From Alloascoidea hylecoeti (taxonomy: Eukaryota), in contig BCKZ01000007.1 of the NCBI GenBank assembly GCA_001600815.1, positions 916,059 to 980,058 on the forward strand: a stretch of 64,000 bases of DNA. Direction: 5' to 3'. Of this stretch, positions 1 through 18,440 are shown in pieces. The position numbers and the translations under genes are program-made. Numbering within the stretch: position 1 is the first letter of the stretch; each line of letters opens with the position of its first letter. The notes beneath the pieces are model-generated. The model did not search any database, was not told the DNA's origin, and saw only the letters and a list, made by a program, of their open reading frames with translations.

Positions 1-1974
1 TATCTGTACTCTGTACTATCTCTGTAGTTGGATTCGATCCAACGTACGGTATGTGCATCGTGAAATATCACGATCTATTTTATCACAGCATATGAAACAC
101 TTTAAACTGTTGTGAAATAATAGCAGTTATAATAATTCTAAATCCGATATATTGAGAATTTATAATGTGCATGTACACATATGTGTTAGAAATATACACT
201 GTATTTTTTTTTCACGTGTATTTCATAGTATACGCGTACTAATAACTATCCATTCGTTAATTATTAATGTGTTAATTGAAATGACAGATGTAGTATTCCT
301 CGCTATAGCTAAACTAACAATTGCAATTTGCAAATGCTAACATTGCAACATTAATTATAATAAATGTTGAAAATATGAAATTTAACTAAAAGATTAGTTG
401 ATCTTGCCATACTATAGCCAGATATAAGGCTTATATTAGTTCTTTGAGTTTGAGTGTATTATAATGGGTGCCCACTGCCTACCCATTTTTAATCCACAAA
501 TTACTTGTAATAACATATACTGTTGTGATGACTTTTAATTAAAGCCAAATGACCCAATCTTTTGTTCCTCAGAAATTAACTTATAATTTCCAAGATGCTG
601 AAAATACACACACCAAGGTGGCAAACCACCAATATGATAAATTTTCTTCAAATTATATCTTCAGATTCCTAGAATGGATCATAAATCCCATTTTTTAAAT
701 AATTTATCGCACAGTTTTCGAGAAACTTGCGTTTTAATATTTTTTTATTTGAGTGTTAACGTTAGTGTGATCATGATCAAAGGTTGACATTTACCTAGAT
801 AAAAGAATTCCTCCAACTATTATGGTATAGTTATTGTAGTAAAATTAATGTATATAAATTATTTTGCGCGAGGAAGTGAAGTAATATATCACCAATTTAT
901 TTCTTACTTGATTGAAGTCGGATCTAGGGTATAATTTCTGGAATCGTTAATTCCCGTATGTATTTTATCAACAAATAAACTTGTTTAGCTTTGTGTTAGT
1001 GTATAATTTCTTATTAGTAACATGACGCACTTGAATCTTTTATTATTAGTCTCTTTAATCTGATTTCAGGTTGTCTTTATCATTTGCATGTTATATAAAT
1101 AAAGATATAGATCTAGAAGTTACTAACATCGGTAGCTATATCATGTAGAGCCACAAGGGTAAATCTTGTACGACTTATTGAAAATCAAAGTAAACGTTTA
1201 CCAACCCCATATAAATATCCATAATTCCAGTTAGTTAAAAGATCAGATTATTGGTTATCATTTAATTTTACAATTAGTCATCATTATTAGTTCTAAGGAT
1301 TTTTAAATCTTTCCGGAATACTAATAAAATGAAGACATTAATTAATTTATTAATAAATGAATAAATAAATAAATTAATAGAGATGGACGTAGCAGTCACA
1401 TAAGATAGCTGATATTACAATAATCAGTAAAAACCAAATTACTCAAAAAAGAAGATTGAGATCCGTTATTGATGCATTGTAATTAACTTCATTTATGTAG
1501 GTTTCGTTAAATTTGTTAATATTTTCCCTGAAGTTTGAATAAATAAATCTCGGAAAAAAAGCTTAAATGGTATAATATGACATTGGTATATCATATAGTT
1601 TAAATACACTATTATTATTTTTCTCTGAAGCATATGGAGGTAGCTAATAATTAGCTATATAGTTTTGATATCGATGAACAGATCATAAAACGCCCATTGA
1701 TTAATTCATTTAGCTGATATTACTTGAAAATAACGATACATTTTCTTTTAACTATTAATTATAAACAAGTTATATATATAAATTTTATTAGTTACAAAAG
1801 TATATATTCTTAAACAATATATACTTTCTATTAAGATATATATATTTTGAATCATGTCGTTGAAAGTTATAATTATATGTATAAGGGAGAATTAATGATG
1901 AGTTAGTATTAGTGATCATGAATTTGTATTAGTATGAATATTAATGAATTTGTATAAGTATTATGTAGTGAATA

Positions 1975-2026
1975 AGTATTAGTGAATCAGTATTAGTGAA
2001 TCAATATTAGTGAACAGTGAATCAGT
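1975..2026. repeat. Degenerate tandem repeat, unit about AGTATTAGTGAATC, just 3' of the MFS gene
   Basis: agtattagtgaatc-agtattagtgaatc-aatattagtgaac-agtgaatc read directly; more diverged copies extend back to about 1905. Confidence 0.75.
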
Positions 2027-2049
2027 ATATATCTGATAATGCTATGCCA

Positions 2050-3816
2050 TTAAGTTAATTGAGAAATTGAATTCTCATTTTTTATTTGTTCATTATCATT
2101 TTCTTCAGATTTTTGAATAGATTTATTTGTGGTGAAAATCCCGCAAACAAAAGCAGCACAAGATAATCCAAGACAGAACAATAATTGAGCCTTAACGGAT
2201 CCAGTAACTTCTTCTAAAATTGCATTAGCAACAACAGTTGGGAAACTTCTAATTGTTTCTGGTTTATTTATAAGTAATTTGATGTCAATTTTATATATAT
2301 CATTATCACGTAATAAATTGGTTATTTTATTTGATGAAAGTCTATAACTTAGTGTTGAAGTGAAAATCGATTGACTAATTGAACTGCAAAGACATCCACC
2401 AAGAAATTTTAAGAATGCTAAAAATGTTGTAGCTAAGATCATACCATTTTTTATATCTTTGGGAACAGCAAGTTGACAACTTAAAATTAATAATGAAAAT
2501 GTCATACCAAGTCCAACACCTGGCAAAATAAGGTAACCAATTTTTTCAGAACTTGTTGAATCTTTTTTTAATAAAGTTATAACTGAAAATCCAACTAATG
2601 CACAAGTTGTTGATAATATTACTAGCGGTTTTACTTTTTTTAAAATTGTTGCTATAATTCCAGTTGTTACACCAGCTATCACAACAGCTAGAATTGTTGG
2701 TAACAGTGCAATTCCGGCTTCAATTGCAGTTTTATTTAAAACTATTTGAAAATATGAAATCATTGCAGGTAAATAAGCCATAAGATAACCGTTGGCAAGA
2801 CCAACAACAAGAGATGCAGCCAAAACCTGTGGAATTTTTAAAACTTCAATATGAAATAATGGTTGTTTTGAAATTTTAAAATTATAAAAGCAAAATACTA
2901 AAAGTGTTATACCACCAAGGACAAAACAAATTATAACGGGGGCTGATTTCCAAGGATAATCATTTCCTCCAAAGGTAATAGCGAGTAATAAGACAACAAA
3001 CCCCGAGGATACTAAAAATGTACCAATGTAATCAACGAGATATAATTTATCTTTAATTGAACCTTTTGGTTTTGTTGGATGGAAGCCAAAGAATAAAATT
3101 ATTGCAGCAATTCCACCAATAGGTAAATTTATATAGAAGCACCATCTCCAACTAACGTGGGAGGTAAAAGCGCCACCAATTAAAGGACCACAAATTGTTG
3201 AAACTGCAGTTGATACACTCAGTGCTGCAAACCAAATACCTCTCTTTTGCATCGGTAATATTTCAGAAGATACAATCATAATTAGGGCTTCAATACCACC
3301 ATCTCCAACACCGGCAATAGCCCTACCAACAATTAACATATCCATTGAAGTTGATACAGCACATATTAATGAACCAAATTCAAAAATTAATATTGCAATT
3401 AACATGATTGGTTTACGACCAAAAATAATTGATAATCTACCCCAAGTTGGAGTTAAAACGGCAACGGGTAGTAGAAAGGCAGAAATTATCCATCCAATTT
3501 TTGAATAACCATTAAATTTATTACCGACTTTTGTTAAGATAGTAAAACTTATTGTCTGATCAAGATCACATAAAAACATCGATAATACTAAGGCACATAA
3601 ACATAAAGCAAGTGGTATACCGTGAAGATAACGATCTTGATCTGCTACTTCTGTTTCGACACCTTCATTTATAATTGGAGACAGAGGATTATTGATTGAA
3701 TTGCTATAAGATCTAGAATCTGAAGAATTGTCCCTGGGAATTACAGCTACGTTTTTGCTTTTCTCTAAATCTGACTTATTCGCTTCGGGAACGTTTTGGG
3801 GAATCGTTGTTTTCAT
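2050..3816 (-). CDS. MFS drug:H+ antiporter, DHA2 (14-TM) family, Azr1/Sge1/Vba-like
   Basis: 588 aa ORF; motifs DLDQTI, WGRLSIIFGRK, GRAIAGVG, GPLIGGAFTSHVSWRWCFYINLP; many hydrophobic helices. Confidence 0.93.
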   Translation of the reverse strand: MKTTIPQNVPEANKSDLEKSKNVAVIPRDNSSDSRSYSNSINNPLSPIINEGVETEVADQDRYLHGIPLALCLCALVLSMFLCDLDQTISFTILTKVGNKFNGYSKIGWIISAFLLPVAVLTPTWGRLSIIFGRKPIMLIAILIFEFGSLICAVSTSMDMLIVGRAIAGVGDGGIEALIMIVSSEILPMQKRGIWFAALSVSTAVSTICGPLIGGAFTSHVSWRWCFYINLPIGGIAAIILFFGFHPTKPKGSIKDKLYLVDYIGTFLVSSGFVVLLLAITFGGNDYPWKSAPVIICFVLGGITLLVFCFYNFKISKQPLFHIEVLKIPQVLAASLVVGLANGYLMAYLPAMISYFQIVLNKTAIEAGIALLPTILAVVIAGVTTGIIATILKKVKPLVILSTTCALVGFSVITLLKKDSTSSEKIGYLILPGVGLGMTFSLLILSCQLAVPKDIKNGMILATTFLAFLKFLGGCLCSSISQSIFTSTLSYRLSSNKITNLLRDNDIYKIDIKLLINKPETIRSFPTVVANAILEEVTGSVKAQLLFCLGLSCAAFVCGIFTTNKSIQKSEENDNEQIKNENSISQLT

Positions 3817-4174
3817 ATCAATTTTAGTGAATATTAACTAAGCTTTTAAGGTAAATTTAAAGTAAAATACAGCGATAAATCCGGTACCTTTTCAACCCCG
3901 GATGAGAACAAGCAAAACTTCCGAAATATATTTTAATTTACAACCACATTTTGAGGGATTCTATAATTTTTTGGTCCGTGTCTATATAATCTACAGCATG
4001 TTACCATTGGAGCTAGAAATAAAGATCCTAAACATCCAAAAGTTACTGATTATTGTGTTTTCGATCCATCTAATTTCTTACCACAAGGACTTAATCTGCA
4101 AGATCTATAATGCAAGTGCCTGGTAAGCTTAAACACGATTATTATCATATTAACAGATCAACTAGGAAGCATTC

Positions 4175-4620
4175 AATGTTACCGTAATTATCAATGCCTT
4201 GGTTGACTCTGGATCCATCTTCAGGAAGTCTTACATTTAGTGGAGTTGACAGTAACTTATATATTGGAGAATTATATACTCTTCCATTGTCCGGACTTCT
4301 AAGTCCAGGTTCCAAACTAGACAACATTACTTTAAACTCGAATGTGTTACTATCAAAGTCAAACTTGCGGACCTCTTGCATATACAGACAAATAATAATG
4401 ATCGTTACTCACAATGCTATTTTGAAATACAGGAAGCTGCGGCTGGTGGTTCATCTATACTAGGTGATATCTTTTTATCAAATTCCTACATTGTCTTTGA
4501 TTTGGACAGTGAACAGGTTTCAATTGCCCCAACTAATACTTCAGCACTCGCAAGTTGATTCCAAGCTTCAGGCCATTCCTAAAGGAACAAATGTAGTTCC
4601 TGGTGCTAAAAAATGTCTTC
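4175..4620 (+). pseudogene. Fragment of a pepsin-family aspartic protease (yapsin/SAP-like), C-terminal lobe, frameshifted
   Basis: ALVDSGS (second catalytic Asp motif, GAC at 4205), then in other frames LYTLP, CVTIKVKLADLL and CYFEIQ...SILGDIFLSNSYIVFDLDSEQVSIA; stops and frameshifts; no N-terminal lobe. Confidence 0.85.
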
Positions 4621-5201
4621 TATAGTTCTTCCTTTAATGATCATATATATCTATTAATTAGATCTAAATTTATGTAGTTATAAGTCTATAAAATTTATGG
4701 CCTAATCTATTTATTAGAAACTTACTACGTCTATAATTAATCTGGTTTTTACTATCTAGTTTAATTTGGTCAATCGTTTAGTTTGACCATAAGTTAAGTC
4801 CCAGCCATAATTTTTTAATACTTGCGAAAAGTGATTGAAAGTTTTAATAGGTGTGTAGATATTTCGATATTCTCAATTGAAAAGGTAAACTAAGCAGCAT
4901 AGAGTCCATAAATTATTGTTAGCGTATTCGCTTATAATTAGTTCTTAATGAGATTGCGATGGTGTAAATGTATCACGTAGCTGATGTTTATTTACATTCC
5001 AAGCTAATTTAGGATGTTAATTAATATCGTAGGCAATCAACAGATAGTACGAAAATTGAATTAGAGTGAACTTCCTTTCAGATTAAAACTTTTTTTTACC
5101 AATGGCTATAAAATCTTTTACGTATTTATTTACACTTAACTGAATTTTCATAATATTTGTGGCTGATGCTATTGCAATTGTTTATTCTGTTGATCATTCA
5201 T

Positions 5202-6416
5202 TCATAACCTTGCTTCATTTGTGACTGGTAACGACTTCAAACCTGATTCATCTATCAATTTTGTAAAAATCTCAGACGCTGAAGAATTAATATTAATTTG
5301 ATGGTAATTTTGTCCAGCTAGATGAAATCCATAATCTAAAGTATCGCCTTTTAGTGACTTGAATTTCCGATGTCCTTGAACGAGAAATCCATAAGGTGGT
5401 AAATCATCTAATGATTTTATAATTTCATCGTTTTCAAAAGAAGATATGAGATTTGAAATAAATGGAGTTCTAAGGCATCTAGCAGGTTTACCCGATACCA
5501 ATGAAGTCATAACTGTATTATACTTATTTAAAGTTACTGGAGTATCTTGTAAATATGCTTTTATAAATGCATTTTTATTTGCTTCTGGAGTTGTTATAAA
5601 CGCTGTGCCTAATTGAACGGCAGAAGCGCCTAATCTTAAATAATTTGAAATTGATTGTCCTGTCATAATACCACCTGCTGGAATAATGAAAAATTCTTCA
5701 CCAAACTTATTAACCAGTAATTCAGTTAGAACTGTTGTTGATAAATTTTCATCATTATGTTGATCAAGCAAAAAATTTCCACGATGACCTCCAGCTTCAT
5801 AGCCTTGGGCAATAAACCCATCAACTCCCAATTTAGAAATTACCGATGCTTCCTGAAGCGAAGTCACTGTTACTAATACAACAATTCCATTCGACTTTAG
5901 TAGTTTAATTGTACTAGAATTTGGAGATCCAAAATGGAAAGATATAACTGATGGTTTATAATCCGATGACGTAATAAGATTCATCAATTGTGAATAATTT
6001 GATTTCAAAGCAGGTTCGACCTCCAATCTTTTGAATGATATTGTTTTTTTTGAAAATATTGGTGTTTTATTTAAACCATCAATTACAGAACTAGAATTAT
6101 CAACATTCGAATAAAGACGTTTCCAAGAATCGTGTTGTTGCAGTGTGTAATCGGGACCACCAACCTTTTCATCATGACAGAAAAAATTCAAGTTAACTTT
6201 TCTTTTAAAGGATTCATTTGATGTCTGGGATTGAAATTCATCAATAATAGTCTTGACGGCTTTGGAACTGGATATATCTGTTGCTCCTAAGGGCAAGGAA
6301 CCCAATCCGCCGGCATTTGTGATGGTTGCCGCTAGTTTTGGTGTGCTAAGGTTTGCCATTGGGGCTTGTATGATTGGGTAATCAATACCGATCCGCTTGA
6401 TAAACCTCTTATGCAT
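5202..6416 (-). CDS. Nitronate monooxygenase (2-nitropropane dioxygenase family), with C-terminal PTS1-like -ARL
   Basis: PIIQAPMA, VISFHFG, AQGYEAGGHRG, IPAGGIMTG, GASAVQLGTAF, SGKPARCL motifs. Confidence 0.93.
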   Translation of the reverse strand: MHKRFIKRIGIDYPIIQAPMANLSTPKLAATITNAGGLGSLPLGATDISSSKAVKTIIDEFQSQTSNESFKRKVNLNFFCHDEKVGGPDYTLQQHDSWKRLYSNVDNSSSVIDGLNKTPIFSKKTISFKRLEVEPALKSNYSQLMNLITSSDYKPSVISFHFGSPNSSTIKLLKSNGIVVLVTVTSLQEASVISKLGVDGFIAQGYEAGGHRGNFLLDQHNDENLSTTVLTELLVNKFGEEFFIIPAGGIMTGQSISNYLRLGASAVQLGTAFITTPEANKNAFIKAYLQDTPVTLNKYNTVMTSLVSGKPARCLRTPFISNLISSFENDEIIKSLDDLPPYGFLVQGHRKFKSLKGDTLDYGFHLAGQNYHQININSSASEIFTKLIDESGLKSLPVTNEARL

Positions 6417-6998
6417 TTTGAATAAAGCTCAAGAATATTTGCAATTGGATATCGAAATTATTAATAATGGTGGGGAAATAACTAGTAATCAAAATAGCAA
6501 TAAAAAAGAATGGGGATAGAGAGGTTTTATATATACCGATATTAATAATGTCCAGAGGAGAAGTTAAAGCATTAATCAAGGGAGCAATCGGATGAATGGA
6601 CGAATAAAAGATGAAGTCGGACAAAGCTCGGAGTTTCTTATAATTACTAGTGTGATTATTTGTCATGGTAAACTGTCTTAATATGCACAAACACAAATTG
6701 TACATTTCTACGCGAGTTATATATTTTATCGTTATTTTTGATATCACATTAAGCCACCAATAGGTCCTTGATTTAATTAATTGTTACAATAGTATAATTA
6801 ACACAGTACTACCAATAGGTCTACTGGCATATATCTTATAACAACTAATATATATTTTACTTTTATCCTTAAATTACAATTATAATATAAGACGTCGAAG
6901 AATCAAAATAATTATTTTGTTACATTTACAATTTTATTATTTTTACAATTTTATTATTTTAATAATAAAATTGTCATTCTACAACAACAACAACAACA

Positions 6999-9718
6999 AT
7001 GTAATCATCAGTATTATCAACCAAAAAGGATAATCTTGTAGTGTTGAAATCAAGATACAATAATCTGGTTAACAATATTGTCTCTAACACAACTTACTGT
7101 TATAATGAGATTGATAACTCAAAATCAAATGTTAATATCTTGAATGATAAAATTAAGTCTTTGGAGGATATAATTGAAAACTTGGCCAAGTTATTGGAAC
7201 CAGAAAATGCTTCGATCAACCAGTTATTGAATAAACAACGCCTCCTTCCAAACATTGAGGATTTCCCTATTCAGGAGAGACCAGGAGCTCCTTCTTTTTC
7301 TGGTGCTGAAACTATCATCAAAGAGGAAGAAAAGTTTGTACTTCCAAGGGATGTTAAAGAAAATATGATGGAATTGGAACTTCCATTTTATCCTGGTGAA
7401 AGAGAAAAGGAATTTTGTTGGACAGCTCTTATTATAGATTCTCCATTATCGGCTTCAGTTGAAAAACCGCCACCCTTTGACAATAAATTAGTTATAGACT
7501 GTCTTGATGAGAACATCTTTAATAAATTGGCTGATATACAAAACTTGCTCATACTACACCGTATCCGTTACGATTTGTGGGCCAGTATTGGTATAACTTA
7601 CTTAGAGAACAAACTAGAATATATCAAAAGATCTTTTTCAGGATCCGTTGAATGGTGTTTCTTTGTTAAGTCACTTCTAAATTCGTTAGCTACTCCAGGT
7701 TTGTTGTACAATAAATTATTTTCAAATCTTTTGGAAACAAAGCCTAAGTCAGACGAATCAATTGGTCAATTCTTGTCTCGTTTCCAACTTGCGGCCACCT
7801 CCACTCCAAATTTTGTTGTATCAAAACAGATAATTCGAGAACTGTTAATCTTCAATATGAAAGATATCGCCCCTCGTTTAGTTTTGAGGGAAACACAAAA
7901 CAGATCTCACACGTTAAATGATCTGTATTATAAGTTCCAATATGCGTATGGTGATAGCACAACTATTGGATCGATCCAACAATTAGAAACTGGCACAGGT
8001 ACTGTTGGTTCTGTTACTTCTATTACTACACCAGCTAATCCGTACTCATTGCATAGTTTGGATAATTTGAATGAGAAATGCTACCGATGTGAAGGTAGAG
8101 GACATAGGGCGAATCAGTGTCCTTCACCGCCTTCAGTTCAACGATCTCGTGTAAATTCTTCTTATAAACCTAATACCTTCGGTAAAGGTCAAAATTCTCA
8201 TCACTATCCATCATATGATAAAAATGTTAAACCACATTTCTCTACTAATAAAAATAAAATTAACAAATATAAACGTTTTTTAAATATATTAGAAAAGGCA
8301 TTTGAAGATGAGAATGATGTTGAATTTGAGGAAGAAGAAGAGACTTTTAATAAATCTGAGGAAAATGAAGGTTTTGTGAGTGCGTCCAATTATGACAATA
8401 TTTATTCTATAAGTTCTAATGTAGCTCCCGCCATTAACATTCAGGGAGAAATTAATGGAGTAAAAGTTGCTATTTTAATTGATTCAGGGGCCAATTCAAG
8501 CTACATCAATCGACACTGGATTGAAAATAATCCCATGGATTTGAATATTGAAAAGTGTAAGGATCCTAATACTTTAGTGGATGGAGCTTTTGGTTCTCAA
8601 GCAATAACTGAGATTTTGTTAACAACGTTATTTCTTTATGATATTGATAATCAAGTATTGAAATTTGATTTGGAACTTGGGATATTGGATTCCAAGATGA
8701 ATTATGACTTAATTCTAGGTCGTTATTTTGCTCTAAAGTATGGTTTATTAGAACAACAGGATGGTACTCTGTTGATAAAAAATGGTTTCATTATTAACCC
8801 TATTAATTTATCAGAAATTAATAAGAGTCGAAAGGAACTGATTAAGGGAAAACGATTGGTTTTCTCCATGGGAACTGTAGTTTCCGACAACTTCAGCATA
8901 GATTCTTATGATACATATATTCAAGAGATAGAGAAACTGGAAAATTACTTAAAATCAACTACCATGGATAACCGGGTACAATCATTAATTGGTAAGTTTC
9001 CAACTATTATGTCAGGTAACATACAAATTGAAGCTAAGTATCACCTTTAGGAACTAAATGGAGTGGTGAGGCCCATTGCCCATCAAGAGAAGGACGTAAA
9101 ATTTTTAATTTAATACCATCCTCAATATACTTGCTAACAAAATCTCTTTCCTTTGGTGACATCGGATATGGATTGGATGATATTGGATCATGAATACCAG
9201 GCCTTAAACGTAAACGAATTGGTTGATACTTTTCGACCTGTTATAAATTATAAGAACTTGAATAAAGTGCTGGTCCCTTTTCCTTATCCGTTACCAAGAA
9301 TTAATGATTTATTCTTAGAAGCAGGTAAGTATCAATATAATACCAAATTAGATTGTAAATCAGGTTTTTGGCAGATACCAATAACAAGTTCATCTTCGAA
9401 ATTAACAACGTTCACCTGTTTCCTTGGATTGTTTGAATACACACGTCTTCCTTTCGGTTTGACCTGTTCGAGTAGCTACTTTCAAAATTATATATCGACT
9501 TTGTTTCGTAGTCTTAAACATATTTTTATATTTATCGATGATATTTTAATTTGTTCTTTGGAAGAAGAAGGAGAAAGTGGACATTAAATATTCTGCAAAC
9601 AAATGGTCTAATTTTGAATTCAAAAAAATGCATCTTTATGAGAACAAACATTGAATTCTTGGGTTTTGTGTTGAGTCGTAATAGTTTACAAATTACGCCA
9701 GATAAAATTCAGAGCTAA
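6999..9718 (+). mobile_element. Defective Ty3/gypsy LTR retrotransposon internal region (Gag, Zn knuckle, protease, RT); truncated before RNase H and integrase
   Basis: CCHC knuckle CYRCEGRGHRANQC; protease ILIDSGANSSYI; RT motifs LDCKSGFWQI, RLPFGL, FIDDILI and, after a frameshift near 9584, KKCIF...IEFLGF; stop at codon 2; internal inversion 9044-9223; no LTR pair recognised. Confidence 0.93.
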
Positions 9719-9783
9719 ATAGTGAATTAACTAAGCTTAAGGGCTGAATCGGTACATATGACGGAGAACAATTCGATTATCTG

Positions 9784-9970
9784 GTAAAGCAATACACTGG
9801 GTCTACCGGTATAGATATAGGCGATAAACACTTCTTCTATTGGTTTTTTGCAACGCAGAACGATCCAGTAATATCATGGCTCTATATGGAGGTCGTGTTC
9901 TTCTTCGACAGGTTAGTTATATGAATTGGGATCAGCTTTAACCAAAGATTTGAAATCGGTTCGTAATTTA
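9784..9970 (+). pseudogene. Fragment of a serine carboxypeptidase (S10, carboxypeptidase Y/PRC1-like)
   Basis: VKQYTG...DKHFFYWFFATQNDPVISWL, then frameshifted GG..SSSTG*LYELGS..TKDLKSVRN. This follows the mature CPY N-terminus pattern [46 protein letters not shown]. Confidence 0.85.
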
Positions 9971-10442
9971 AATGAATTATATGGCCACTACATCCAAACA
10001 TTGCTAATGAATTTATTAAACACAAAGACAGATATCTCTTCGGTTATAATTAGTATACGGTACCGGTATAACGTCAACTCCTTTGTCTTTTCTGTTAAAA
10101 TCTGATATATTGTAATTTTTGTTACTCAATGAAATTTTTAGAGCACTTAAACTTGTAATTTTGGTGAACGCCTTCATAACTACGTTTTATCGTGGTCTAA
10201 CAAACTATAAGTTATATCAGGTAATTATATATAGAAAGAGAGATATATTTTATTAATTTTTATTATTTAATCTGTTTTCTATAATTATATTTAGATTTTA
10301 AATCATAATCGGAACGACCGAAGAGAAAAAATAGCAAAGTAAAAAAAAGAAACCATATATGGTATGTTGGAGTCAACGTTGATAGCAATGAGACTTAAGC
10401 TTGACAACGTGTTATAAAAGAGGTTTATATCTTTCCGAAATC

Positions 10443-11995
10443 TTAAAGGCAAAAAAGTAATTCCAAATTTGCAACCCCGAGGATATTATCTTTTAAGTTA
10501 CAAGCAACTTTAAATCTTTCCATTTCAGTCTGTATTGATTTATTTTCACTTAGAATCGGTTCGACTGTTTCCATAAAAGCATGATAAATATTATGTTTTC
10601 TATCAAGTTGAAATCCCATAACTATTGAAATACTACAGAATCCATAGATTAACAATAGTGCGAAAATTCCTTGTTGTCTTGCAATTGTAACCATTTCTTC
10701 TGGCATTGTTGATAGGAAAGAATGAAATGGTCCATAAATTTGATTATTATAGAATCGATTGGCAAAATGTGAAAGTTGAAGAATAGCTTCTCGATAAGTA
10801 TTTATTTTTGATTCTCCCATACCTACCAATTTTGAGTATTCATCAAGTAGTCTGTTTAATTTATCAATAAAAGGAAATGATATAATTGAAGATTTTGACC
10901 AAGAAGGGTACATTAATATCATACCTTTCATAACTGGTTTAACATTATCATCAACTTCATCAATACCCCTCAACGACATTTTTGACTTCATTTCAGGTGA
11001 TAGTAAAGAATAAACTGCATTCGCTCCACGAATTATTGCTAGAAAATCAATACAAGAACCATCGCTTGAGACTAATGGTACCATTGTAGGATGATGAGAA
11101 GCATATGCAACAAGTAAACAATTGCAGAGAAATAAAGACATGATATCAAAAGTCTTACTATCTTTGTCTACTCTTTTTAAATCTTCCATGAATAATTTTA
11201 AAGAGTTATTGTATAGTTTCTCTGATTCATATTGCAAAGGGTCAGGTGAAAAATCAGCCTTTCTTTGATTCCAATAATAAAGAGTTGATATAGCTTTTAA
11301 GGCGATTTTTATTGACATGGAATTCTTTGCATATGATGGTAAGACACTAGACCAAATATTCCACCAACTTACTGTATAGGTATTATCTATAATAACCCCA
11401 ACATTATAAATCAAACGATTTAGGTCAAATGAATCATTTTGGTATTCAAAAAGGTTAATTTTATTAGGGAAAACACAATCATATTGGATATTGATTTCTG
11501 GGTGAGTTTGACACAATCCCATATGGATGGCCACCTGATTAAAACTAGCTGTATCATCATAACTTTCATTATAATAGAGATGATCCATTGGAGAATTTAA
11601 ATGGCAAGGATAACCATACCAAACTTGCCTCCTCTTGGCCGGTTTTGGTGCAATCTTCACAACTTTATTACTAGTCTCGAGATATCTCTTTCTTTTGATC
11701 TTTTCGGGAGGAACATATATGCATTCCCTCTTTGAACCTAGACAATGTAGGCAAGACGGTTTGGCTTCATCGCACTATAATAATGAGTCTCAAAGGTTAG
11801 CAGATTAATTAAAATATATGCAATGCATACACAGTTAAAACTTAAGTTCAAGAAAAAATTATATGAACATACCTTAATTCTAATTCGTTTGCAGTTCAAG
11901 CAGCCTGTTCTTGATCTTTTATGAATTGGCCTATTTTTGACCTTTTTCGAATTCGTAACTAAAGAAGTGTGTGTAGAAGTTGAAGCTTTTTCCAT
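10443..11995 (-). CDS. Zn2Cys6 transcription factor (Upc2/Ecm22-like); 2 exons, intron 11872-11775
   Basis: Splicing GTATGT...GCTAAC...TAG joins HKRSRTGCLNCKRIRIK to CDEAKPSCLHCLGSKRECIY, in frame with the 10443-11660 ORF. Confidence 0.9.
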
Positions 11996-13089
11996 ATTCG
12001 TATTTTAATGGTGAAGTTCAATCACAATAGTTTCAGTTTTGGTGTAGGCTTAAGACAAAAAATAGAAAATTTAACGTTGTTGTTGTCGTTGTTGTTGTTC
12101 TGAATATACTTGAATAGTAACTATCAATTGCATTAATATAGCGAACTAATAGCTAACTAACATGGAATTTATTGATAAATTAAGAAGAAGATAAAGTAGG
12201 AAATTAAGGATTTATATAAGCAGGAGACTTTAAATAACATTAATTACATTTTCATATAAGAGAATTCTGGATTCAATAGATACACAATATTACACATACT
12301 TAATGGTGTTAAAAGAGCATATTAAGTATCAGTATAGATAAATTTTAATAAAAACTTAAGGATGAATATGTACTTAATTGAGTTTAAGATTCTATTTTCA
12401 CAAAGATATCTACTATTTCATACTAACATGATTCCCAGATTGAAACTTAGATGACTCCTACTCTTAAGGTCAAATATAGCTACAAGGAAATGGTTTCTAG
12501 TCTTAGGCTTAAATATACTATTTCTCGATAAAAGATTTGGCTATAGCCATATGTATACATCTTATTTCATAATTGGTTCTTGGAAGAAGAAGAAACGCCA
12601 GCAGCTATAGCTTTCATACAATTATCATTGATATTAATAGCAGTTAATTATATTCTGGAATCTAAATTAAAGTGTTTCTTGATCTAATAAAGTTTAGATG
12701 CGAAAAGAAATATACGGCGTCACAATAAACAACGTTCGCTCTTAAATTCTACGAATAAGATTGAGTATTCTTCCTCCGATCGACCAAAAGATACCAATTA
12801 TTATATAATATATATTATGATTGTTTCTAATCTGTGCCCAAAATTAATTATAATTATAAAAAACTCCATTACAGTTTTCTGTAATTAAAACATCACTCGG
12901 AGAGTCACTCCAACTGGTTGTTATCTCCATACATTTAATTATATGGCTAACTAAATAGTTATATCGTTAATATTAGCTTGTCCATTCTTATAAACCTACC
13001 AGAACACGGCACATAATGCAATATAAACAAAACTTCAACTTTCATATATTAAAAACATTAACTAAATGTCTATATATTATTCTAATAAC

Positions 13090-13989
13090 TTATAAACTTG
13101 TTTCTGAACTTTTATCACTCCAGTCATATTCTAAAGGTTCCTTTACAGGATCCCAACAAGTTAAATGATAAGCAAGGTGATCACCCAACTCTGTTATTTC
13201 CAATCTTGTCAAATCAAAATCAAAAACATCAAAATTTTCTTTAGCACGAACTGGACTGACAGTCTTCGGTAATGGAATAAAACCCTTTTGAATACTCCAT
13301 TTCACTAAAATTTGTGCAGGAGACTTATTATATTTTTCTGCTAATTTAACCAAGTCTGGGGCATCAAGTTTGGTACCTCTTGTTAATGGAGAGTAAGCTT
13401 CCAGAGCCAAACCATTGGCTTTACAGAAGTCAACAAGTTCAGTTCTTTGTAACCAAGGAGATAATTCAATCTGATTGATCACTGGCTTAATCTTTAAGCC
13501 TTTCCATCTAAAGAGTTCTTTTATATGATGAATACCATAGTTAGAAACACCAATGGATCGAACAGTACCCGCTTCAACGGCCTCTTGTAAAGCCTTATAT
13601 GTGCCCAATCGCTTTTCCTTGTCTGATAGTGGAGAATGAATTAAGATTAAATCAATATAACCCAATCCTTCAGCTTTTTCCAATGAACTCTTGATTTGGG
13701 CTACTGTTTTATCGTATCCATGTGCAGTGTTTGGTACCTTTGTAGTATAAAAGATGTCCTCTCTTTTATTATGTTCAGGATCTTCATTTAACCACTTCAA
13801 GATTCCTTGGACAGATTCTTCTTCGTTGTTGTAAACAACTGCAGAGTCGACGTGTCGATAGCCGATCTTCAGGGCTTGGTAGACGATGGTAGTTGCTGTT
13901 TTAGCAGGTGTCTGATAAACACCAAACCCAATAACGGGGATTTTATGACCTGAGGACAATTCTTTTAATGGGGCTAATTTAAGTGACAT
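13090..13989 (-). CDS. Aldo-keto reductase (YJR096W-like), copy 1
   Basis: IPVIGFGVY, GYRHVDSAVVYNNE, IFYTTK, YIDLILIHSP, SIGVSNY, NQIELSPW, YSPL, PLPKT; start placed at MSLKL by alignment with copy 2. Confidence 0.94.
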   Translation of the reverse strand: MSLKLAPLKELSSGHKIPVIGFGVYQTPAKTATTIVYQALKIGYRHVDSAVVYNNEEESVQGILKWLNEDPEHNKREDIFYTTKVPNTAHGYDKTVAQIKSSLEKAEGLGYIDLILIHSPLSDKEKRLGTYKALQEAVEAGTVRSIGVSNYGIHHIKELFRWKGLKIKPVINQIELSPWLQRTELVDFCKANGLALEAYSPLTRGTKLDAPDLVKLAEKYNKSPAQILVKWSIQKGFIPLPKTVSPVRAKENFDVFDFDLTRLEITELGDHLAYHLTCWDPVKEPLEYDWSDKSSETSL

Positions 13990-14236
13990 TATCAATATAA
14001 AATCAATTGATTGCTCAAAACAAGGAGGTTAGGATTTCTTTGGATATAAGCAACTTATATTAGTAAGGTGGATTTATCATGTGAGACATCGGACGTTGAA
14101 TGATATTACAACATCCGATCCGATTAAGAATAAATTGCGTAATCTTAGTCTTATTCTACATCATATAATTATAACTATTTAAATAGGTATTTAAATCGAT
14201 TTAATCTTACATCCAATATCAATTGTCTTTATAAAT

Positions 14237-15124
14237 ATGTCTAATTTGGCTCCCTTAAAAGAATTGCCTTCCGGTCATAAAATCCCCGTTATTGGTTTAG
14301 GAGTTTACTTAACTCCCACCGATGTCGCTTCAAGTATTGTCTACGAGGCCTTGAAATTGGGGTATAGACATATTGACTCTGCTGCTGCTTACAAAAACGA
14401 AGAAGAAGTTGCCCAAGGAATCTTGAAATGGCTAAATGAAGATCCTGAACACAATAAAAGAGAGGATATCTTTTATACTACAAAGATACCTAACGAGGCA
14501 CACGGTTACGCCGAAGCAAAAGAACAGATTGAAAAATCATTAAATAAAGCAAAGGGTCTTAAATATATTGATTTGATACTTATTCATTCACCACAATCAA
14601 ATCGTGAAAAAAGACTTGGAACATATAAAGCATTACAAGAAGCAGTCAATTCCGGGACTATAAAAACAATTGGTGTTTCAAATTATGGTATCCATCATTT
14701 AAAAGAATTATTAAAATGGGATGGATTGACAATTAAACCATCTATTAATCAAATAGAAATTTCTCCATGGTTACAAAGACAAGAACTAGTCAAATTTTCA
14801 CAAGATAATGGAATTGTATTAGAATCTTATTCACCTTTAACAAGAGGTCAAAGATTAACAAATCTTGACCCTGAATTAGGAGCATTAGCTAATAAATATG
14901 GGAAATCTCCTGCCCAGGTCTTAATTAAATGGAATATACAAAAAGGCTATATCGCATTACCTAAAACTATCAATCCAGCAAGAGCAGCAGAAAACTTTGA
15001 AGTCTTTGATTTTGAATTAACCAAGGAAGATTTGGAAGAATTTGGAGATCCAAAAGCTTATAGTGTTACTTCTACTACAGGTTGGGATCCTATTAGTGAA
15101 CCATTAGAGTATGAATTAAAATAG
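14237..15124 (+). CDS. Aldo-keto reductase (YJR096W-like), copy 2, divergent paralog
   Basis: Same AKR motifs; long stretches identical to copy 1 (QGILKWLNEDPEHNKREDIFYTTK). Confidence 0.94.
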   Translation: MSNLAPLKELPSGHKIPVIGLGVYLTPTDVASSIVYEALKLGYRHIDSAAAYKNEEEVAQGILKWLNEDPEHNKREDIFYTTKIPNEAHGYAEAKEQIEKSLNKAKGLKYIDLILIHSPQSNREKRLGTYKALQEAVNSGTIKTIGVSNYGIHHLKELLKWDGLTIKPSINQIEISPWLQRQELVKFSQDNGIVLESYSPLTRGQRLTNLDPELGALANKYGKSPAQVLIKWNIQKGYIALPKTINPARAAENFEVFDFELTKEDLEEFGDPKAYSVTSTTGWDPISEPLEYELK

Positions 15125-15195
15125 ATGATAAATTCTTAGACACTTAATATCATTCATAAATTTATAAATTATATCAATATTATAATATAGGTAGG

Positions 15196-16209
15196 TTAAC
15201 CTATAAAAATAGATAATATTTTAGTTCCTTTTTCGAAGAATGCCTTGAAATTTCCCTTTAAATTTGTGTTTACTGCTATTGAGGATATGTCAACTTCAAG
15301 TACCTGACCATGAATAAACAAGAGTAGTTTGTGGGTTTTATTATCGTAATCTAATGTGACAGTTTCAAAATCTTCTATATCCGCTGAGCTAACTCTAACA
15401 GCATGAGTGTACTCTTTTGGTTTATCAAGTTTTATTATTGATGTGTTTAATTGAATTTCCCTTTCTACTTCTAGATCTTTCCCGGTATTATTATCTGCTT
15501 CCCCGATGACTTCAATCAAGGGTTTCTTTGAGGGCTGTGACAGTAAAAAAGAATTAGCTTGACCAGGTCCAGGACTCAGTTGCCCATGTTGAGCTATAGT
15601 TTCTTTTTCATCATTGTTATTCTCATTTTTTTTCATATCCAATATCAATTTGGCCATCTCATCAATTTCAGTTGTTACATTTTTCTCTGGAAGTTTTAAC
15701 TGTGAAGCTTTGACAATAATATTCCCAACTTTCCCCTTGACTGGCAATTTTGGAAAGCTAACTTCATCAGAGAGTTCAAGTTTTGATTTAAATTCAACAG
15801 CATTAATACACCATTGAGCCATAACCGTCCTTAAATCTTTATCCTTTAAAACCCAAGTAAATGCTCTATCATTAATAACACAATCATAAACAAAGGATTT
15901 AACACCTTTTTTATCCTTATCTTCCCTTTCTTCAGAGCAGACAATCGGAATTTCCCATTTATCAGCTAAAATCAATGGAATAACTTCAGGGCTGAAGTCG
16001 GTATCAGGAGCTGGTACATGCTTTTCATGACATAAATTAATAAAAAATTTGGTTCCTTTATTTCTTACTGGTGAAATTGTAGATTTTTCCAAACGTGTTT
16101 TAATCACAAAACCAGGCTTTGGAGTAAGAGATATCTCCTCATCTGAATCACCTGGATCATCTATATCGATTTCATCTTGTATATTTTCAAGCTCTTCAAT
16201 AATTGCCAT
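15196..16209 (-). CDS. PIH1: PIH1 domain protein (R2TP complex)
   Basis: LTPKPGFVIKT, KFFINLC, WEIPIVCSEEREDKDKKG..SFVYDCVIN. Confidence 0.88.
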   Translation of the reverse strand: MAIIEELENIQDEIDIDDPGDSDEEISLTPKPGFVIKTRLEKSTISPVRNKGTKFFINLCHEKHVPAPDTDFSPEVIPLILADKWEIPIVCSEEREDKDKKGVKSFVYDCVINDRAFTWVLKDKDLRTVMAQWCINAVEFKSKLELSDEVSFPKLPVKGKVGNIIVKASQLKLPEKNVTTEIDEMAKLILDMKKNENNNDEKETIAQHGQLSPGPGQANSFLLSQPSKKPLIEVIGEADNNTGKDLEVEREIQLNTSIIKLDKPKEYTHAVRVSSADIEDFETVTLDYDNKTHKLLLFIHGQVLEVDISSIAVNTNLKGNFKAFFEKGTKILSIFIG

Positions 16210-16259
16210 TTTAGGATTGACCTTTTGTGTGATACCGTGTGATTATATAAGGTGGTGGA

Positions 16260-16266
16260 TCACGTG
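16260..16266. promoter_or_regulatory. Cbf1-type E-box TCACGTG in the PIH1/arylsulfatase divergent promoter
   Basis: tcacgtg at 16260-16266; Cbf1-Met4 controls sulfur genes in yeasts, but the target here is inferred. Confidence 0.4.
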
Positions 16267-16735
16267 TGAAGATTACCAGCCTATTATGTAAGGATTTCAT
16301 TAACTATACGGTCATTTCACTCATTCGGATACTGATTATCGGACACTCCCGCAACTAATTTGCGGACGGGTTTGGCATTTTTCAATTTTAAACCTTCTAC
16401 TAATTATAAACAGAAAATCCCAACAATAAACTGAATTAATTTATCTAATCTTCGGAAATAATCTAATCAATCGATATCTAATTGGGTAATACAATTATTA
16501 ATCCGAAGCTGAAGCCCCGAGGAGATTTTCTCAACAATTTGTGTACATGTATTATATAATCATAGATGACGAAGTTTAGAGTGACATGACGGAATACCAT
16601 TGATAACGTGGGTGCAACTAAACAATTGTAACTGCATATTAATGTTGATCTTGTAGTATCACCTCAACAAGTAAACTATAAAAGTTCTTACATTATGCTT
16701 GAAATATATTTCAATTTCACAAAACTAATCTAGAA

Positions 16736-18400
16736 ATGTCCAGACCAAATATTCTAATAATCGTAGCAGATGATTTGGGCTTTACTGATACTTCTCCATT
16801 TGGTGGAGAGATTAAGACCCCAAATCTTCAGGCTTTAGCATCTCAAGGTCTTCGTTTTACTAATTTTCATACTGCTTCAGCATGTTCTCCAACAAGATCA
16901 ATGCTATTGTCAGGGACTGATAATCATATTGCTGGCTTAGGGCAAATGGCTGAATTTGCTAGAGGCTACCCAGAGAAATTTGCCGGTAAAAAAGGTTATG
17001 AAGGAGTTTTAAATGACAGGGTTGCACCATTGCCTGCTATTTTAAAAGACGCCGGATACTATACATGGCTTGCTGGGAAATGGCATTTAGGACTAACCCC
17101 AGACTCAATTCCATCTCAACGTGGGTTTGAAAAGAGCTTTTCTTTATTGCCAGGTGCTGGAAATTACTATAAATATTTTCCAAAAGCTGAAATTGACGGT
17201 AAAAGAGTACCATTTATGGAACCAATTTATGTTGAAAATGATAGATATATTGATGCCGAAAAAGAATTGCCTGATGATTTTTATACTACAAATTATTTCA
17301 CTGATAAAGCAATTGAATTTTTAAAACATCCTGAAAGAAATGATAGGCCTTTCTTTGGATTCTTGACTTATACCGCACCTCACTGGCCTTTTCAAGCACC
17401 GAAAGAAAGAATAGCAAAATATAAAGGTGTTTATGATAAAGGTCCTGCTGTTCTAAGAGAAGCCCGTTTAGCAGCTGCTAAAGAATTAGGAATCATTCCT
17501 GATGATGTTGAACCACATCCTATTAGATCACTTCATGAAGAATGGTCTCAACTATCACCAGAAGAACAAAAAAGACAGGCAAGAATAATGGAAATTTATG
17601 CAGCCATGGTTGACATTCAAGATGAGCAAATAGGTCGGGTGATTCAAACATTAAAAGATCAAAATGAATTTGATAACACTGCAATATATTTCTTAAGTGA
17701 TAATGGTGCAGAGGGTTTCTTAATGGAAGCAATGCCAATGAAAAATTCATCAACAAAGAAATGTGTTGCAAAATATTTTGATAACTCTTATGAAAATCTA
17801 GGTAATAAGGATTCATGGGTTTATTATAACGATCAATGGGCACAAGCAGCTACTGCTCCTTCATATATGTATAAAATGTGGGCTTCGGAAGGTGGTATAC
17901 GAACTCCTTTAATTTTACGCTATCCTAAACTTACCTCATCACAACAAGCTGATGTTAAAGATGCTTTTGTTACTGTTATGGATATATTGCCCACTGTTTT
18001 GGAATTTGCTGGCGTAAAGCACCCAGGAAAGTCATTTCATGGCCGTGAAGTAGCAATACCTAGAGGTCAATCTTGGCTACCTTACCTTATTAAAGAACAA
18101 AATCATGTCCACGATTCCGAAACAGTAACTGGTTGGGAGTTATTTGGTCAACAAGCAGTTAGAAAAGGTGATTATAAAGCATTATTTATCCCCAAACCTT
18201 TTGGTTCTGGCGAATGGGAGTTATATAATATTACAAAAGATCAAGGTGAGATTCATAATCTAGCTACAAAAGAACCGGAAAAGCTTGAACAAATGCTAGA
18301 CTATTGGAGTTTGTATGTTGCGGAAACCGGATTGATTGAACTTGGAAATGAATTTGAAATACAAAACTTTTTATATGATGCAAAGATTTTTGATAATTAG
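16736..18400 (+). CDS. Formylglycine-type arylsulfatase (AtsA-like), no signal peptide
   Basis: RPNILIIVADDLG, CSPTRSMLLSG (CxPxR), GKWHLG, YTAPHWP, FLSDNG, EGGIRTP. Confidence 0.95.
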   Translation: MSRPNILIIVADDLGFTDTSPFGGEIKTPNLQALASQGLRFTNFHTASACSPTRSMLLSGTDNHIAGLGQMAEFARGYPEKFAGKKGYEGVLNDRVAPLPAILKDAGYYTWLAGKWHLGLTPDSIPSQRGFEKSFSLLPGAGNYYKYFPKAEIDGKRVPFMEPIYVENDRYIDAEKELPDDFYTTNYFTDKAIEFLKHPERNDRPFFGFLTYTAPHWPFQAPKERIAKYKGVYDKGPAVLREARLAAAKELGIIPDDVEPHPIRSLHEEWSQLSPEEQKRQARIMEIYAAMVDIQDEQIGRVIQTLKDQNEFDNTAIYFLSDNGAEGFLMEAMPMKNSSTKKCVAKYFDNSYENLGNKDSWVYYNDQWAQAATAPSYMYKMWASEGGIRTPLILRYPKLTSSQQADVKDAFVTVMDILPTVLEFAGVKHPGKSFHGREVAIPRGQSWLPYLIKEQNHVHDSETVTGWELFGQQAVRKGDYKALFIPKPFGSGEWELYNITKDQGEIHNLATKEPEKLEQMLDYWSLYVAETGLIELGNEFEIQNFLYDAKIFDN

Positions 18401-18440
18401 TTATATAAAATTATAGATATTAATAGGCAAAATGCACGAT

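Follow-up and report, generated by a model that had tools for sequence, protein, structure and literature searches.

The window analysed here, a stretch of 64,000 nucleotides from Alloascoidea hylecoeti, carries the remains of a retrotransposon whose coding pieces follow one another on the plus strand, save for one segment that lies in the opposite orientation. An ATG directly followed by a TAA (6999–7004, plus strand) precedes the long reading frame of Gag and protease (PR), with which, read from the sequence, it is in frame; gag probably began at this ATG, whose reading now stops at codon 2, and the next in-frame ATG lies at 7365, 120 codons in. The Gag-PR frame as given runs on the plus strand from 7005 to 9050, with 681 open codons followed by a TAG (9048–9050), and its final two codons and the stop fall within the inverted segment. 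Gag bears a CCHC zinc knuckle (C-x2-C-x4-H-x4-C; 8076–8126, plus strand; residues 346–362 of the frame read from 7041), matched by PF00098 (zf-CCHC) at E 4.3e-4 and 20.7 bits, just short of the cut-off of 20.8, while no capsid-domain family of Pfam was matched in Gag. A retropepsin-type aspartyl protease with the motif D-S-G-A follows at 8439–8720 (plus strand, residues 467–560); its matches to PF13975 (E 3.4e-5), PF13650 (E 2e-4) and PF08284 (E 1.3e-3) each lie slightly below the Pfam cut-off. The reverse transcriptase (RT) core, with the catalytic I-D-D box, occupies 9225–9584 on the plus strand in the Gag-PR frame, and matches both RVT_1 (E 5.6e-22, profile positions 8–164 of 205) and the RT of Ty3 (4ol8_A, E 8e-23, chain residues 112–224).

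The RT frame is then interrupted by a frameshift (9582–9590, plus strand), where it meets a TAA at 9585–9587 and RT resumes in another frame; this last piece (9584–9718, plus strand; RVT_1 profile 175–204, E 0.0033) ends at a stop. RT homology ends at 9718, and neither RNase H nor integrase is found downstream of it. The stretch 9719–9774 is a truncation junction between the relic and a fragment of a carboxypeptidase-Y-like pseudogene, whose homology starts at about 9775. Genes for a nitronate monooxygenase and a zinc-cluster factor flank the locus. The seven ORFs between 9730 and 10485 match no Pfam family and hold no further retroelement pieces, flipped ones included. The carboxypeptidase piece has decayed much further than the element and so differs from it in age, for which reason a chimeric cDNA of the retroelement and a carboxypeptidase mRNA was rejected. 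Direct repeats as long as an LTR were not detected in 6000–12000 or in the rest of the window, and there is no 3' LTR; a 44-base piece at 6784–6827, which also matches contigs of higher listed depth with four mismatches, may belong to a 5' LTR family. Self-BLAST of 6700–10450 returned no second copy in the window, within which the element is apparently single-copy, and no Gag-PR homologues were found among proteins of near or longer length or in metagenome contigs; neither the protein nor the metagenome searches revealed a close relative of the element. Few point lesions are seen in the 2.7 kb of the element, which is a dead, truncated relic rather than an intact member of its family.

Its affiliation is indicated by the combination of a CCHC zinc knuckle in Gag, a retropepsin and an RT of the Ty3/gypsy (Metaviridae) type. 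Moreover, RT comes directly after the protease, whereas in Ty1/copia integrase lies between the two: the protease ends at about residue 560, and a profile of related proteins aligns from residue 640 through RT once the inverted segment is flipped. In relatives of P0001, the peptide encoded by that segment, the domains follow one another as PR, RT, RNase H and integrase (e.g., P0008 and P0014). Two further features of the group, RNase H/integrase and a pair of LTRs, were not found at the locus, and the loss of RNase H and integrase fits a truncated relic. Among solved structures the RT core is closest to that of Ty3 of Saccharomyces cerevisiae (4ol8_A), and Ty3 Gag-Pol (7q5b_A) is matched over residues 645–757. 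The element shares with Ty3 the CCHC Gag, the retropepsin and the protease running straight into RT, but, by eye in the alignment, its RT resembles that of Ty3 only remotely. In Ty3, GAG3 and POL3 are linked by a +1 frameshift, whereas the element studied here would have Gag, PR and RT in one frame once the inverted segment is flipped. Ty3 also inserts at tRNA genes; in contrast, no tRNA gene lies within 1–20000 of the window, and the present relic lacks LTRs as well as RNase H and integrase.

The inverted segment

Between the protease and the RT core, two exact inverted repeats of 8 bp, AAGTATCA at 9036–9043 and TGATACTT at 9224–9231 (both given on the plus strand), enclose 180 bp (9044–9223). 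The left breakpoint lies somewhere inside the left arm and the right breakpoint inside the right arm, and the complementarity of the arms stops at 8 bp, with no further pairing inward or outward. The coding strand of the enclosed segment is the minus strand, on which 9043–9225 (the segment plus one or two bases of each arm) forms 61 stop-free codons. This peptide of 61 residues, P0001, occupies the sole stop-free frame among the six of the segment. Both flanks of the segment share one common frame, which, as given, runs from 7041 until it is closed by the TAG inside the segment; when 9044–9223 is reverse-complemented, the frame is stop-free from 7041 to 9584 (848 codons) and ends at the TAA described above. 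A sequence-only reading of this DNA had described the same arrangement. Its repeats around 180 bp are exact in coordinates and letters, and the TAG with which it ended the Gag-protease ORF is borne out by frame reading; the restored Gag-PR-RT frame that it predicted is recovered by the in-silico flip, and the frameshift near 9584 and the truncation that it noted are seen in the shifted continuation of RT and in the end of homology.

The flipped segment is homologous to the stretch directly before RVT_1 in Ty3/gypsy polyproteins, in agreement with the claim that it represents the N-terminus of a Ty3/gypsy RT. Searched against a library of 1.84 billion proteins, P0001 gave 13 non-self matches (E 8.1e-15 to 9.3e-4), with reverse-transcriptase polyproteins among them; 12 of the 13 contain RVT_1, and in 8 of the 13 the match stops no more than three residues from the start of the best RVT_1 stretch. 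By itself, P0001 matched no Pfam family, and at E up to 1 the PDB gave no RT for it. When a profile was made from 11 of these relatives, it aligned without a break to the flipped frame (profile 36–234 on residues 640–839, 143.0 bits), and to the sequence as given over profile positions 123–234 only (76.9 bits). As this profile was built from proteins found with P0001, a match to the P0001 part is expected, and the informative feature is the unbroken span across the junctions: 199 profile positions face 200 residues in a single block over both of them, from which it follows that no bases were gained or lost at either. At the protein level the segment is thus an in-place reverse complement, with the arms abutting both breakpoints. 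Taken together, the profile, Pfam and PDB matches support the earlier description of a Ty3/gypsy-type element with a 180-bp inversion at the PR/RT junction.

Metagenome contigs offered weak evidence on the position of P0001. A scan with the RT core found 59 loci, all with at most 47% identity and therefore no sister copies among them. Strict tblastn with P0001 (E up to 0.01) gave no matches near RT in the 57 of the 59 loci with at least 200 bases upstream; with E up to 10, a match near the RT start appeared in 21 of the 59, one of them under E 0.01. All 21 lie on the RT strand, 18 of them directly upstream with a corrected gap of 12–16 bases.

An 8-bp pair is uninformative on its own, because such pairs are common in this AT-rich window, where 186 inverted 8-bp pairs occur at a spacing of 150–210 bases. 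An open frame of 61 codons has a probability of about 0.008 at the local composition. That two breakpoints fixed by homology, independently of the arms, should coincide exactly with a complementary run of 8 bases has a probability of about 4e-5. Taken jointly, the open frame, the matches to RT polyproteins and the arms at the breakpoints are far beyond chance.

The inversion as real DNA

The inversion is real DNA. In three runs from three studies, both junctions are found in single contigs with no differences, the zero-difference spans being 6700–10340 in run X1, 6700–9819 in X3 and 8779–9407 in X4, a separate wood-decay metagenome from another study; X4 is without contig cover at 8683–8778 and 9408–9471. 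A further run, X5, covers 10454–10500 only and is hence uninformative on the inversion site. The present assembly may itself derive from X1 and X3, and, as the X4 sequence is identical over the compared pieces, the three samples may be one lineage. The contigs of the runs covering the site list no strand-changing joint, and the inverted orientation is the only one in all three; these are contig-level data, from which rare variants are dropped, so that a low-frequency second orientation would be lost.

An assembly artefact, with the true DNA in the RT-coding orientation, is barely credible, as separate contig sets each join both junctions in one contig and an 8-bp repeat, far below the 31-letter index words, should not mislead such an assembly. 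No evidence in favour of an artefact was found.

Discussion

We propose that the inversion arose in a one-off event, by a template switch or microhomology priming at a pre-existing 8-bp inverted repeat, and that it is a functionless scar; we give this reading a probability of about 60%. A Ty3/gypsy-type element with Gag, PR and RT in one frame would by chance have carried the 8-bp arms, 180 bp apart, at its PR/RT junction. Once, and most likely after integration, while the host was replicating its DNA or repairing a break, a nascent strand would have annealed through eight bases to the complementary strand, copied 180 bases in the opposite sense and then switched back at the second arm, either as a double template switch or as its microhomology-primed BIR variant. 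The outcome would be a balanced, length-preserving inversion in which both arms are kept, a TAG is placed two codons into the segment and the N-terminus of RT is shifted to the other strand. It is the junction signature that suggests a copying mechanism: the arms retained in full at the two junctions are what copying should leave behind and would misfit the resection-based joining of two breaks, for which each arm would be needed twice. Since no non-inverted ancestral allele or sister copy was found, the polarity of the event, with the flipped state as the probable ancestral one, is taken from protein homology alone. The relic is presumably without function: with a TAA after its ATG, a frameshift and a truncation before RNase H and integrase, it could not regain a functional Pol even if the segment were flipped back. 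The sequence-only reading had likewise preferred a single template-switch inversion in a copy undergoing decay, which, given the single orientation and the other lesions, is the best-supported account.

The same balanced inversion could instead have been made in the virus-like particle, during reverse transcription, so that the copy was dead on arrival at integration. Along this route the minus strand would switch at one arm to a second minus-strand cDNA, copy 180 bases in the plus sense and return to the RNA at the other arm. RT is prone to template switching, and perfect short arms with no base lost fit any copy-choice polymerase. The few point lesions, in addition, point to a young copy, whose defects could therefore date from its birth. 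However, the particle would have to contain another minus-strand cDNA, completed beforehand, to serve as template, whereas at a replication fork both strands are at hand simultaneously; and the available text of the literature consulted held nothing pertinent on LTR elements or retroviruses in which reverse transcription had produced an inversion. Although the sequence would fit a replication-stage and a reverse-transcription-stage origin equally well, we consider the latter possible but rather unlikely. A comparable case is the 5' inversion of LINE-1, which arises by twin priming during the target-primed reverse transcription of non-LTR elements, inverts the whole 5' part and is usually accompanied by a small deletion or duplication. 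Both are internal inversions of a retroelement attributed to an error of polymerase priming or switching, with microhomology at the junctions; unlike the products of twin priming, the one described here is a balanced internal flip between inverted repeats.

Two double-strand breaks, with the fragment rejoined backwards by end joining and the repeat a coincidence, are the classical route to inversions, and the segment, at 180 bp, has about the length of one nucleosome repeat. Against this stand the 8-base complementary run exactly at both breakpoints, with the low probability given above, and the junctions without a base lost or added, which is unusual for end joining; we regard this origin as improbable. 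Similarly improbable is that the host keeps the Gag-protease frame as a gene, with the inversion serving as its terminator. The frame does remain open for 681 codons in DNA that should hold a stop about once in 13 codons, but a young dead copy accounts for this equally well. Furthermore, the only upstream ATG is closed directly by TAA and the next lies 120 codons in, and conservation of Gag-PR is not demonstrable because the searches described above found no homologue.

The sequence-only reading had offered as its alternative a reversible or recurrent DNA switch at the 8-bp arms, toggling between Gag-PR-only and Gag-PR-RT products. Systems such as Hin, Gin, Fim and the FLP/FRT of the yeast 2-micron plasmid depend on a recombinase of their own and on longer specific sites, and their two orientations coexist and are functional. 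The present locus resembles them in that a segment lies between inverted repeats and its orientation decides which protein is made, but long sites, coexisting functional orientations and, among the neighbouring ORFs scanned, a dedicated recombinase are not seen here. The arms are perfect in both states, contigs could miss a rare second orientation, and in SPO75 of S. cerevisiae a spacer between short inverted repeats has flipped repeatedly, and back again, in the course of evolution, according to the available text of one survey (PMC8604942). Nevertheless, the covering runs hold one orientation only; the arms have no extension, and single-stranded DNA of 9016–9251 folds no better than shuffled sequences (z −0.02), which leaves a hairpin or cruciform unsupported. 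The neighbouring ORFs scanned encode a nitronate monooxygenase or match no family, with no recombinase-type domain among them, and the element itself is without integrase. The flipped state would still meet the frameshift at 9584 and would be without the RT thumb, RNase H and integrase; the product being broken either way, there is nothing useful to toggle. The switch is therefore unsupported and highly improbable, and recurrent low-frequency flipping by template switching, with an intact ancestor toggling between the two products, appears just as remote.

As for the one-off copying event that we favour, comparable inversions have been described. Abraham and Hazkani-Covo (2021, PMC8604942) document inversions between inverted repeats in genes of S. 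cerevisiae, with template switching or MM-BIR as the attributed cause; in the available text of that study, these spacer inversions changed 2–5 bases, had arms of more than 9 bp and were surveyed for spacers of up to 70 bp. The case described here resembles them in the perfect short arms that are kept, the exact reverse complement, the absence of base loss and the location in coding DNA of a budding yeast, but differs in its 180-bp spacer, its 8-bp arms and its host, a dead retroelement. Microinversions between human and chimpanzee, for which template-switch and MM-BIR models are likewise invoked, are pure inversions of 17–33 nt, directly bordered by inverted repeats, perfect or nearly so, that measure 3–75 nt, about half of them with 4–8 nt per flank (PMC8755829, available text). 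The arms found here belong to the class of that half, whereas the ancestral state, known there from an outgroup, is taken here from protein homology, and 180 bp stands against 17–33 nt. In the short-range template-switch model of Loytynoja and Goldman (2017, PMC5453318), and likewise in the orientation-reversing switches reported for yeast, as far as the available text describes them, a replication strand briefly copies its complement and returns, which gives an in-place inverted copy of the kind proposed here. Orientation-reversing template switches are reported to be frequent in yeast and mostly shorter than 50 bases, those of at least 50 bases forming a 'long-range' class treated as mechanistically distinct (bioRxiv 10.1101/2020.03.06.980458, available text); at 180 bp, the present inversion falls in that class.

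A 180-bp spacer with 8-bp arms is thus outside the documented ranges of comparable events, and the inversion is unusually long, exceeding both the 2–5 changed bases and the 17–33 nt of the catalogued cases, as far as the available texts of these catalogues go (PMC8604942, PMC8755829). The probable explanation of this length is that a dead retroelement, unlike a live gene, can tolerate it, long inversions being under no negative selection in such a host.

All together, the inversion looks like an ordinary one-off copying accident, of a kind of mutation already known, and it is of little significance for biology at large. Both orientations in raw reads, if true, would make the case far more interesting, and nothing here suggests so. 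What the relic offers is a clean natural case in which very short inverted repeats, 180 bp apart, border a balanced inversion. From the point of view of annotation, it also serves as a warning: such a flip can split one domain between the two strands, and the RT of a retroelement may therefore look N-terminally truncated when it is not.

Results

The retrotransposon reading frame is interrupted by a 180-bp segment (9044-9223) bounded by two 8-bp inverted repeats, AAGTATCA at 9036-9043 (left arm) and its reverse complement TGATACTT at 9224-9231 (right arm), both read directly on the plus strand, whose match extends neither inward nor outward. As the arms are symmetrical, the breakpoint can be placed anywhere inside the 8 bases. 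The plus-strand Gag-protease frame, starting at 7041 in the ORF list, is closed by a TAG at 9048-9050, two codons inside the segment. On the minus strand, 9043-9225 reads as 61 stop-free codons (the peptide P0001), the sole open frame among the six of the segment. Reverse-complementing 9044-9223 in place by script yields a single stop-free frame of 848 codons (7041-9584), followed by a TAA at 9585-9587. The arms, coordinates, spacing and stop codon of the sequence-only reading thus match to the letter, and the in-silico flip bears out the frame restoration that it had claimed.

Pairs of 8-bp inverted repeats 150-210 bases apart number 186 in the window (32% G+C), where the 8-mer AAGTATCA occurs 10 times against 4.4 expected; taken alone, the inverted repeat is no more than chance. 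An open frame of 61 codons has P of about 0.008 at window composition, and an 8-base complementary run falling exactly on two breakpoints fixed independently by homology has P of about 4e-5. The open frame, the homology of P0001 and the position of the arms, combined, are beyond chance. A third copy of AAGTATCA, in left-arm orientation and again in K-Y-Q codons, is found at 9327-9334, 96 bases 3' of the right arm, so that three of the ten copies fall inside 300 bases; it may be due to chance (roughly 5%) or be a further substrate for template switching.

Searched against 1.84 billion representative proteins (E up to 0.001), P0001 retrieved 14, one of them a 42-residue entry from the same locus, 100% identical (P0002). 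This entry is a minus-strand ORF of the inverted segment (9044-9172) read from an internal Met, that is, a flipped RT fragment called as a tiny gene by a gene caller. The other 13 relatives (E 8.1e-15 to 9.3e-4) carry the Pfam domain RVT_1 in all cases but one (P0011, with no family at all), and in eight of the 13 (P0004, P0005, P0007, P0008, P0009, P0013, P0014 and P0015) the matching stretch ends at most 3 residues from the start of the best RVT_1 match. P0003 has a tripled copy of the matching region, ending 11 residues ahead of RVT_1, and in P0006, P0010 and P0012 the best listed RVT_1 stretch is located elsewhere in the protein. P0001 alone matched no Pfam family, as expected with RVT_1 beginning at the junction, where residue 2 of the downstream piece already corresponds to profile position 8; nor did it match any RT chain in the PDB (E up to 1).

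A profile was built from 11 of the 13 relatives, leaving out P0003 (triplication) and P0011 (short partial match), each sequence being trimmed to the P0001 match with some 60 residues ahead of it and 220 behind. The flipped frame aligns to it in one block, profile positions 36-234 on residues 640-839 (143.0 bits, E 1.5e-45), spanning both junctions (residues 668 and 728), whereas the unflipped frame matches positions 123-234 only, on residues 730-839 (76.9 bits). As the relatives were found with P0001, that this part matches is no surprise; what is informative is the single unbroken alignment of 199 profile positions to 200 residues, which indicates that neither junction has gained or lost sequence. 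On the minus strand, the segment encodes the stretch that immediately precedes the RVT_1 domain.

Ten sequencing runs are listed for 5200-11700, and contigs of four were placed on 6700-10500. A single 6749-base contig of run X1 covers 6700-10340 with no differences and no gaps, a single 7112-base contig of X3 covers 6700-9819 with no differences, and a 629-base contig of X4, a wood-decay metagenome from a different study, covers 8779-9407, also with no differences, reaching 257 and 176 bases past the two arms; X5 covers 10454-10500 only. The present assembly may derive from X1 and X3, which leaves X4 as the independent evidence, possibly from the same lineage since it is identical over the pieces compared. 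The X1 contig extends about 3.1 kb past 6700, into the adjoining nitronate monooxygenase gene, which speaks against another, nearly identical copy. With both junctions carried in single contigs of X1, X3 and X4 and with this reach of X1, an assembly artefact is very unlikely. The contigs of the four placed runs, which drop rare variants, list no strand-changing joint; the sole joint listed is a 76-base skip in X4, from 10348 to 10425.

The 7041 frame contains a CCHC knuckle (residues 346-362) and a retropepsin with D-S-G-A (residues 467-560), both on the plus strand and supported between them by several Pfam families, each slightly under its curated cut-off, followed on the same strand by RVT_1 at 9225-9584 (Pfam E 5.6e-22). 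The best solved relative of the RT core is the Ty3 RT (4ol8_A, E 8e-23; Ty3 Gag-Pol 7q5b_A, residues 645-757). Since the protease leads directly into RT and the P0001 relatives are ordered PR, RT, RNase H, integrase, the element belongs to Ty3/gypsy. It is a relic. The single upstream ATG of the gag frame directly precedes a TAA (6999-7004), with 681 open codons beyond it and the next in-frame ATG at 7365; either codon 2 suffered a nonsense mutation or the actual start is at another position. The frameshift and truncation previously proposed were also found: near 9584 RT passes to another frame, which continues to 9718 (RVT_1 positions 175-204), and Pfam scans of seven ORFs downstream gave no family and nothing retroelement-like. 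The window holds no LTR-sized direct repeat and, on the suggested check for other copies, no second copy of the element; protein and metagenome-contig searches returned no close relative. Just 5' of gag, a 44-base piece (6784-6827) matches, with 4 mismatches, short contigs that in each of three runs are listed at greater depth than the locus contig (103/22, 38.5/8.75 and 23.9/9.2); it could be a piece of a diverged LTR or of another repeat family elsewhere in the genome.

Directly 3' of the truncated RT, on its strand, lies a decayed carboxypeptidase-Y-like (Peptidase_S10) fragment (9748-10105), with homology from about 9775, beginning close to mature-enzyme residue 11 (1wpx_A/1ysc residues 11-42, E 1.3e-5; Pfam E 0.0083, under cut-off) and extending, by eye, through frameshifts to about 10100, although the second piece of it gave no significant match. 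A single deletion may have taken both the element's 3' half and the 5' end of the carboxypeptidase-like gene. Further on, the minus-strand gene at 10443-11995 may encode a fungal zinc-cluster transcription factor, judging from its Cys-rich N-terminal pattern; its 443-residue main frame matched no Pfam family, and the N-terminal part is found in a separate ORF (11738-11995), which could reflect an intron or a frameshift. In the spacer ahead of it, 10311-10500 is covered by several alternative short contigs, including the X4 contig with the 76-base skip and variants with 2-6 differences, and may represent a polymorphic or repeated region.

Discussion

Our results support a one-off template-switch inversion in a decaying copy, the interpretation favored by the sequence-only reading: the inversion is balanced, keeps both arms in full and appears in one orientation in the contigs. 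In a double template switch, a growing strand would have annealed via one arm to the complementary strand, copied the spacer in the reverse sense and returned at the other arm, so that each junction retains its 8-bp arm in full; a microhomology-primed BIR variant would give the identical product. Single-strand folding revealed no special structure (z -0.02). We consider that the switch probably arose during host replication or repair (probability about 0.6). The sequence itself fits an origin by reverse transcriptase before integration equally well, yet we rate this as rather unlikely, as this less simple route would need a second minus-strand cDNA as template; literature searches for such inversions in LTR elements listed none.

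The alternative of a reversible switch presupposes that the segment occurs in both orientations, that a recombinase or at any rate longer sites exist, and that the two products are useful. A minor opposite orientation could escape contigs; however, these show one orientation only, the arms are bare 8-bp sequences, the neighboring ORFs scanned contain no recombinase domain and the flipped product is still frameshifted and truncated. The length over which Gag-PR stays open might suggest a retained gene, but the frame has no usable start and no homologue detectable in protein or metagenome-contig searches, and a young dead copy accounts for it equally well. Other routes to the inversion fit less well than template switching: resection-based joining of two breaks would call for two copies of each arm, blunt rejoining makes the arms a 4e-5 coincidence, and a crossover would act on 8-bp repeats, far under the length used by homologous recombination.

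Inversions of this kind have been described in several settings. In Saccharomyces cerevisiae genes, ten spacer inversions with perfect arms of >9 bp changed 2-5 bases, in a survey restricted to spacers <=70 bp in which one site showed repeated flipping (PMC8604942). In a human-chimpanzee comparison, all 59 microinversions (17-33 nt) have flanking inverted repeats of 3-75 nt, and an MM-BIR model was proposed (PMC8755829). In yeast, template switches that reverse orientation occur frequently, most of them spanning less than 50 bases (bioRxiv 10.1101/2020.03.06.980458), and a four-point template-switch model has been formulated (PMC5453318). The present inversion shares the signature of this class but has a much longer spacer, which is plausible in sequence under no selection. 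It adds one more case to a known kind of mutation and stands out only for the length of its spacer and the clarity with which it can be read.
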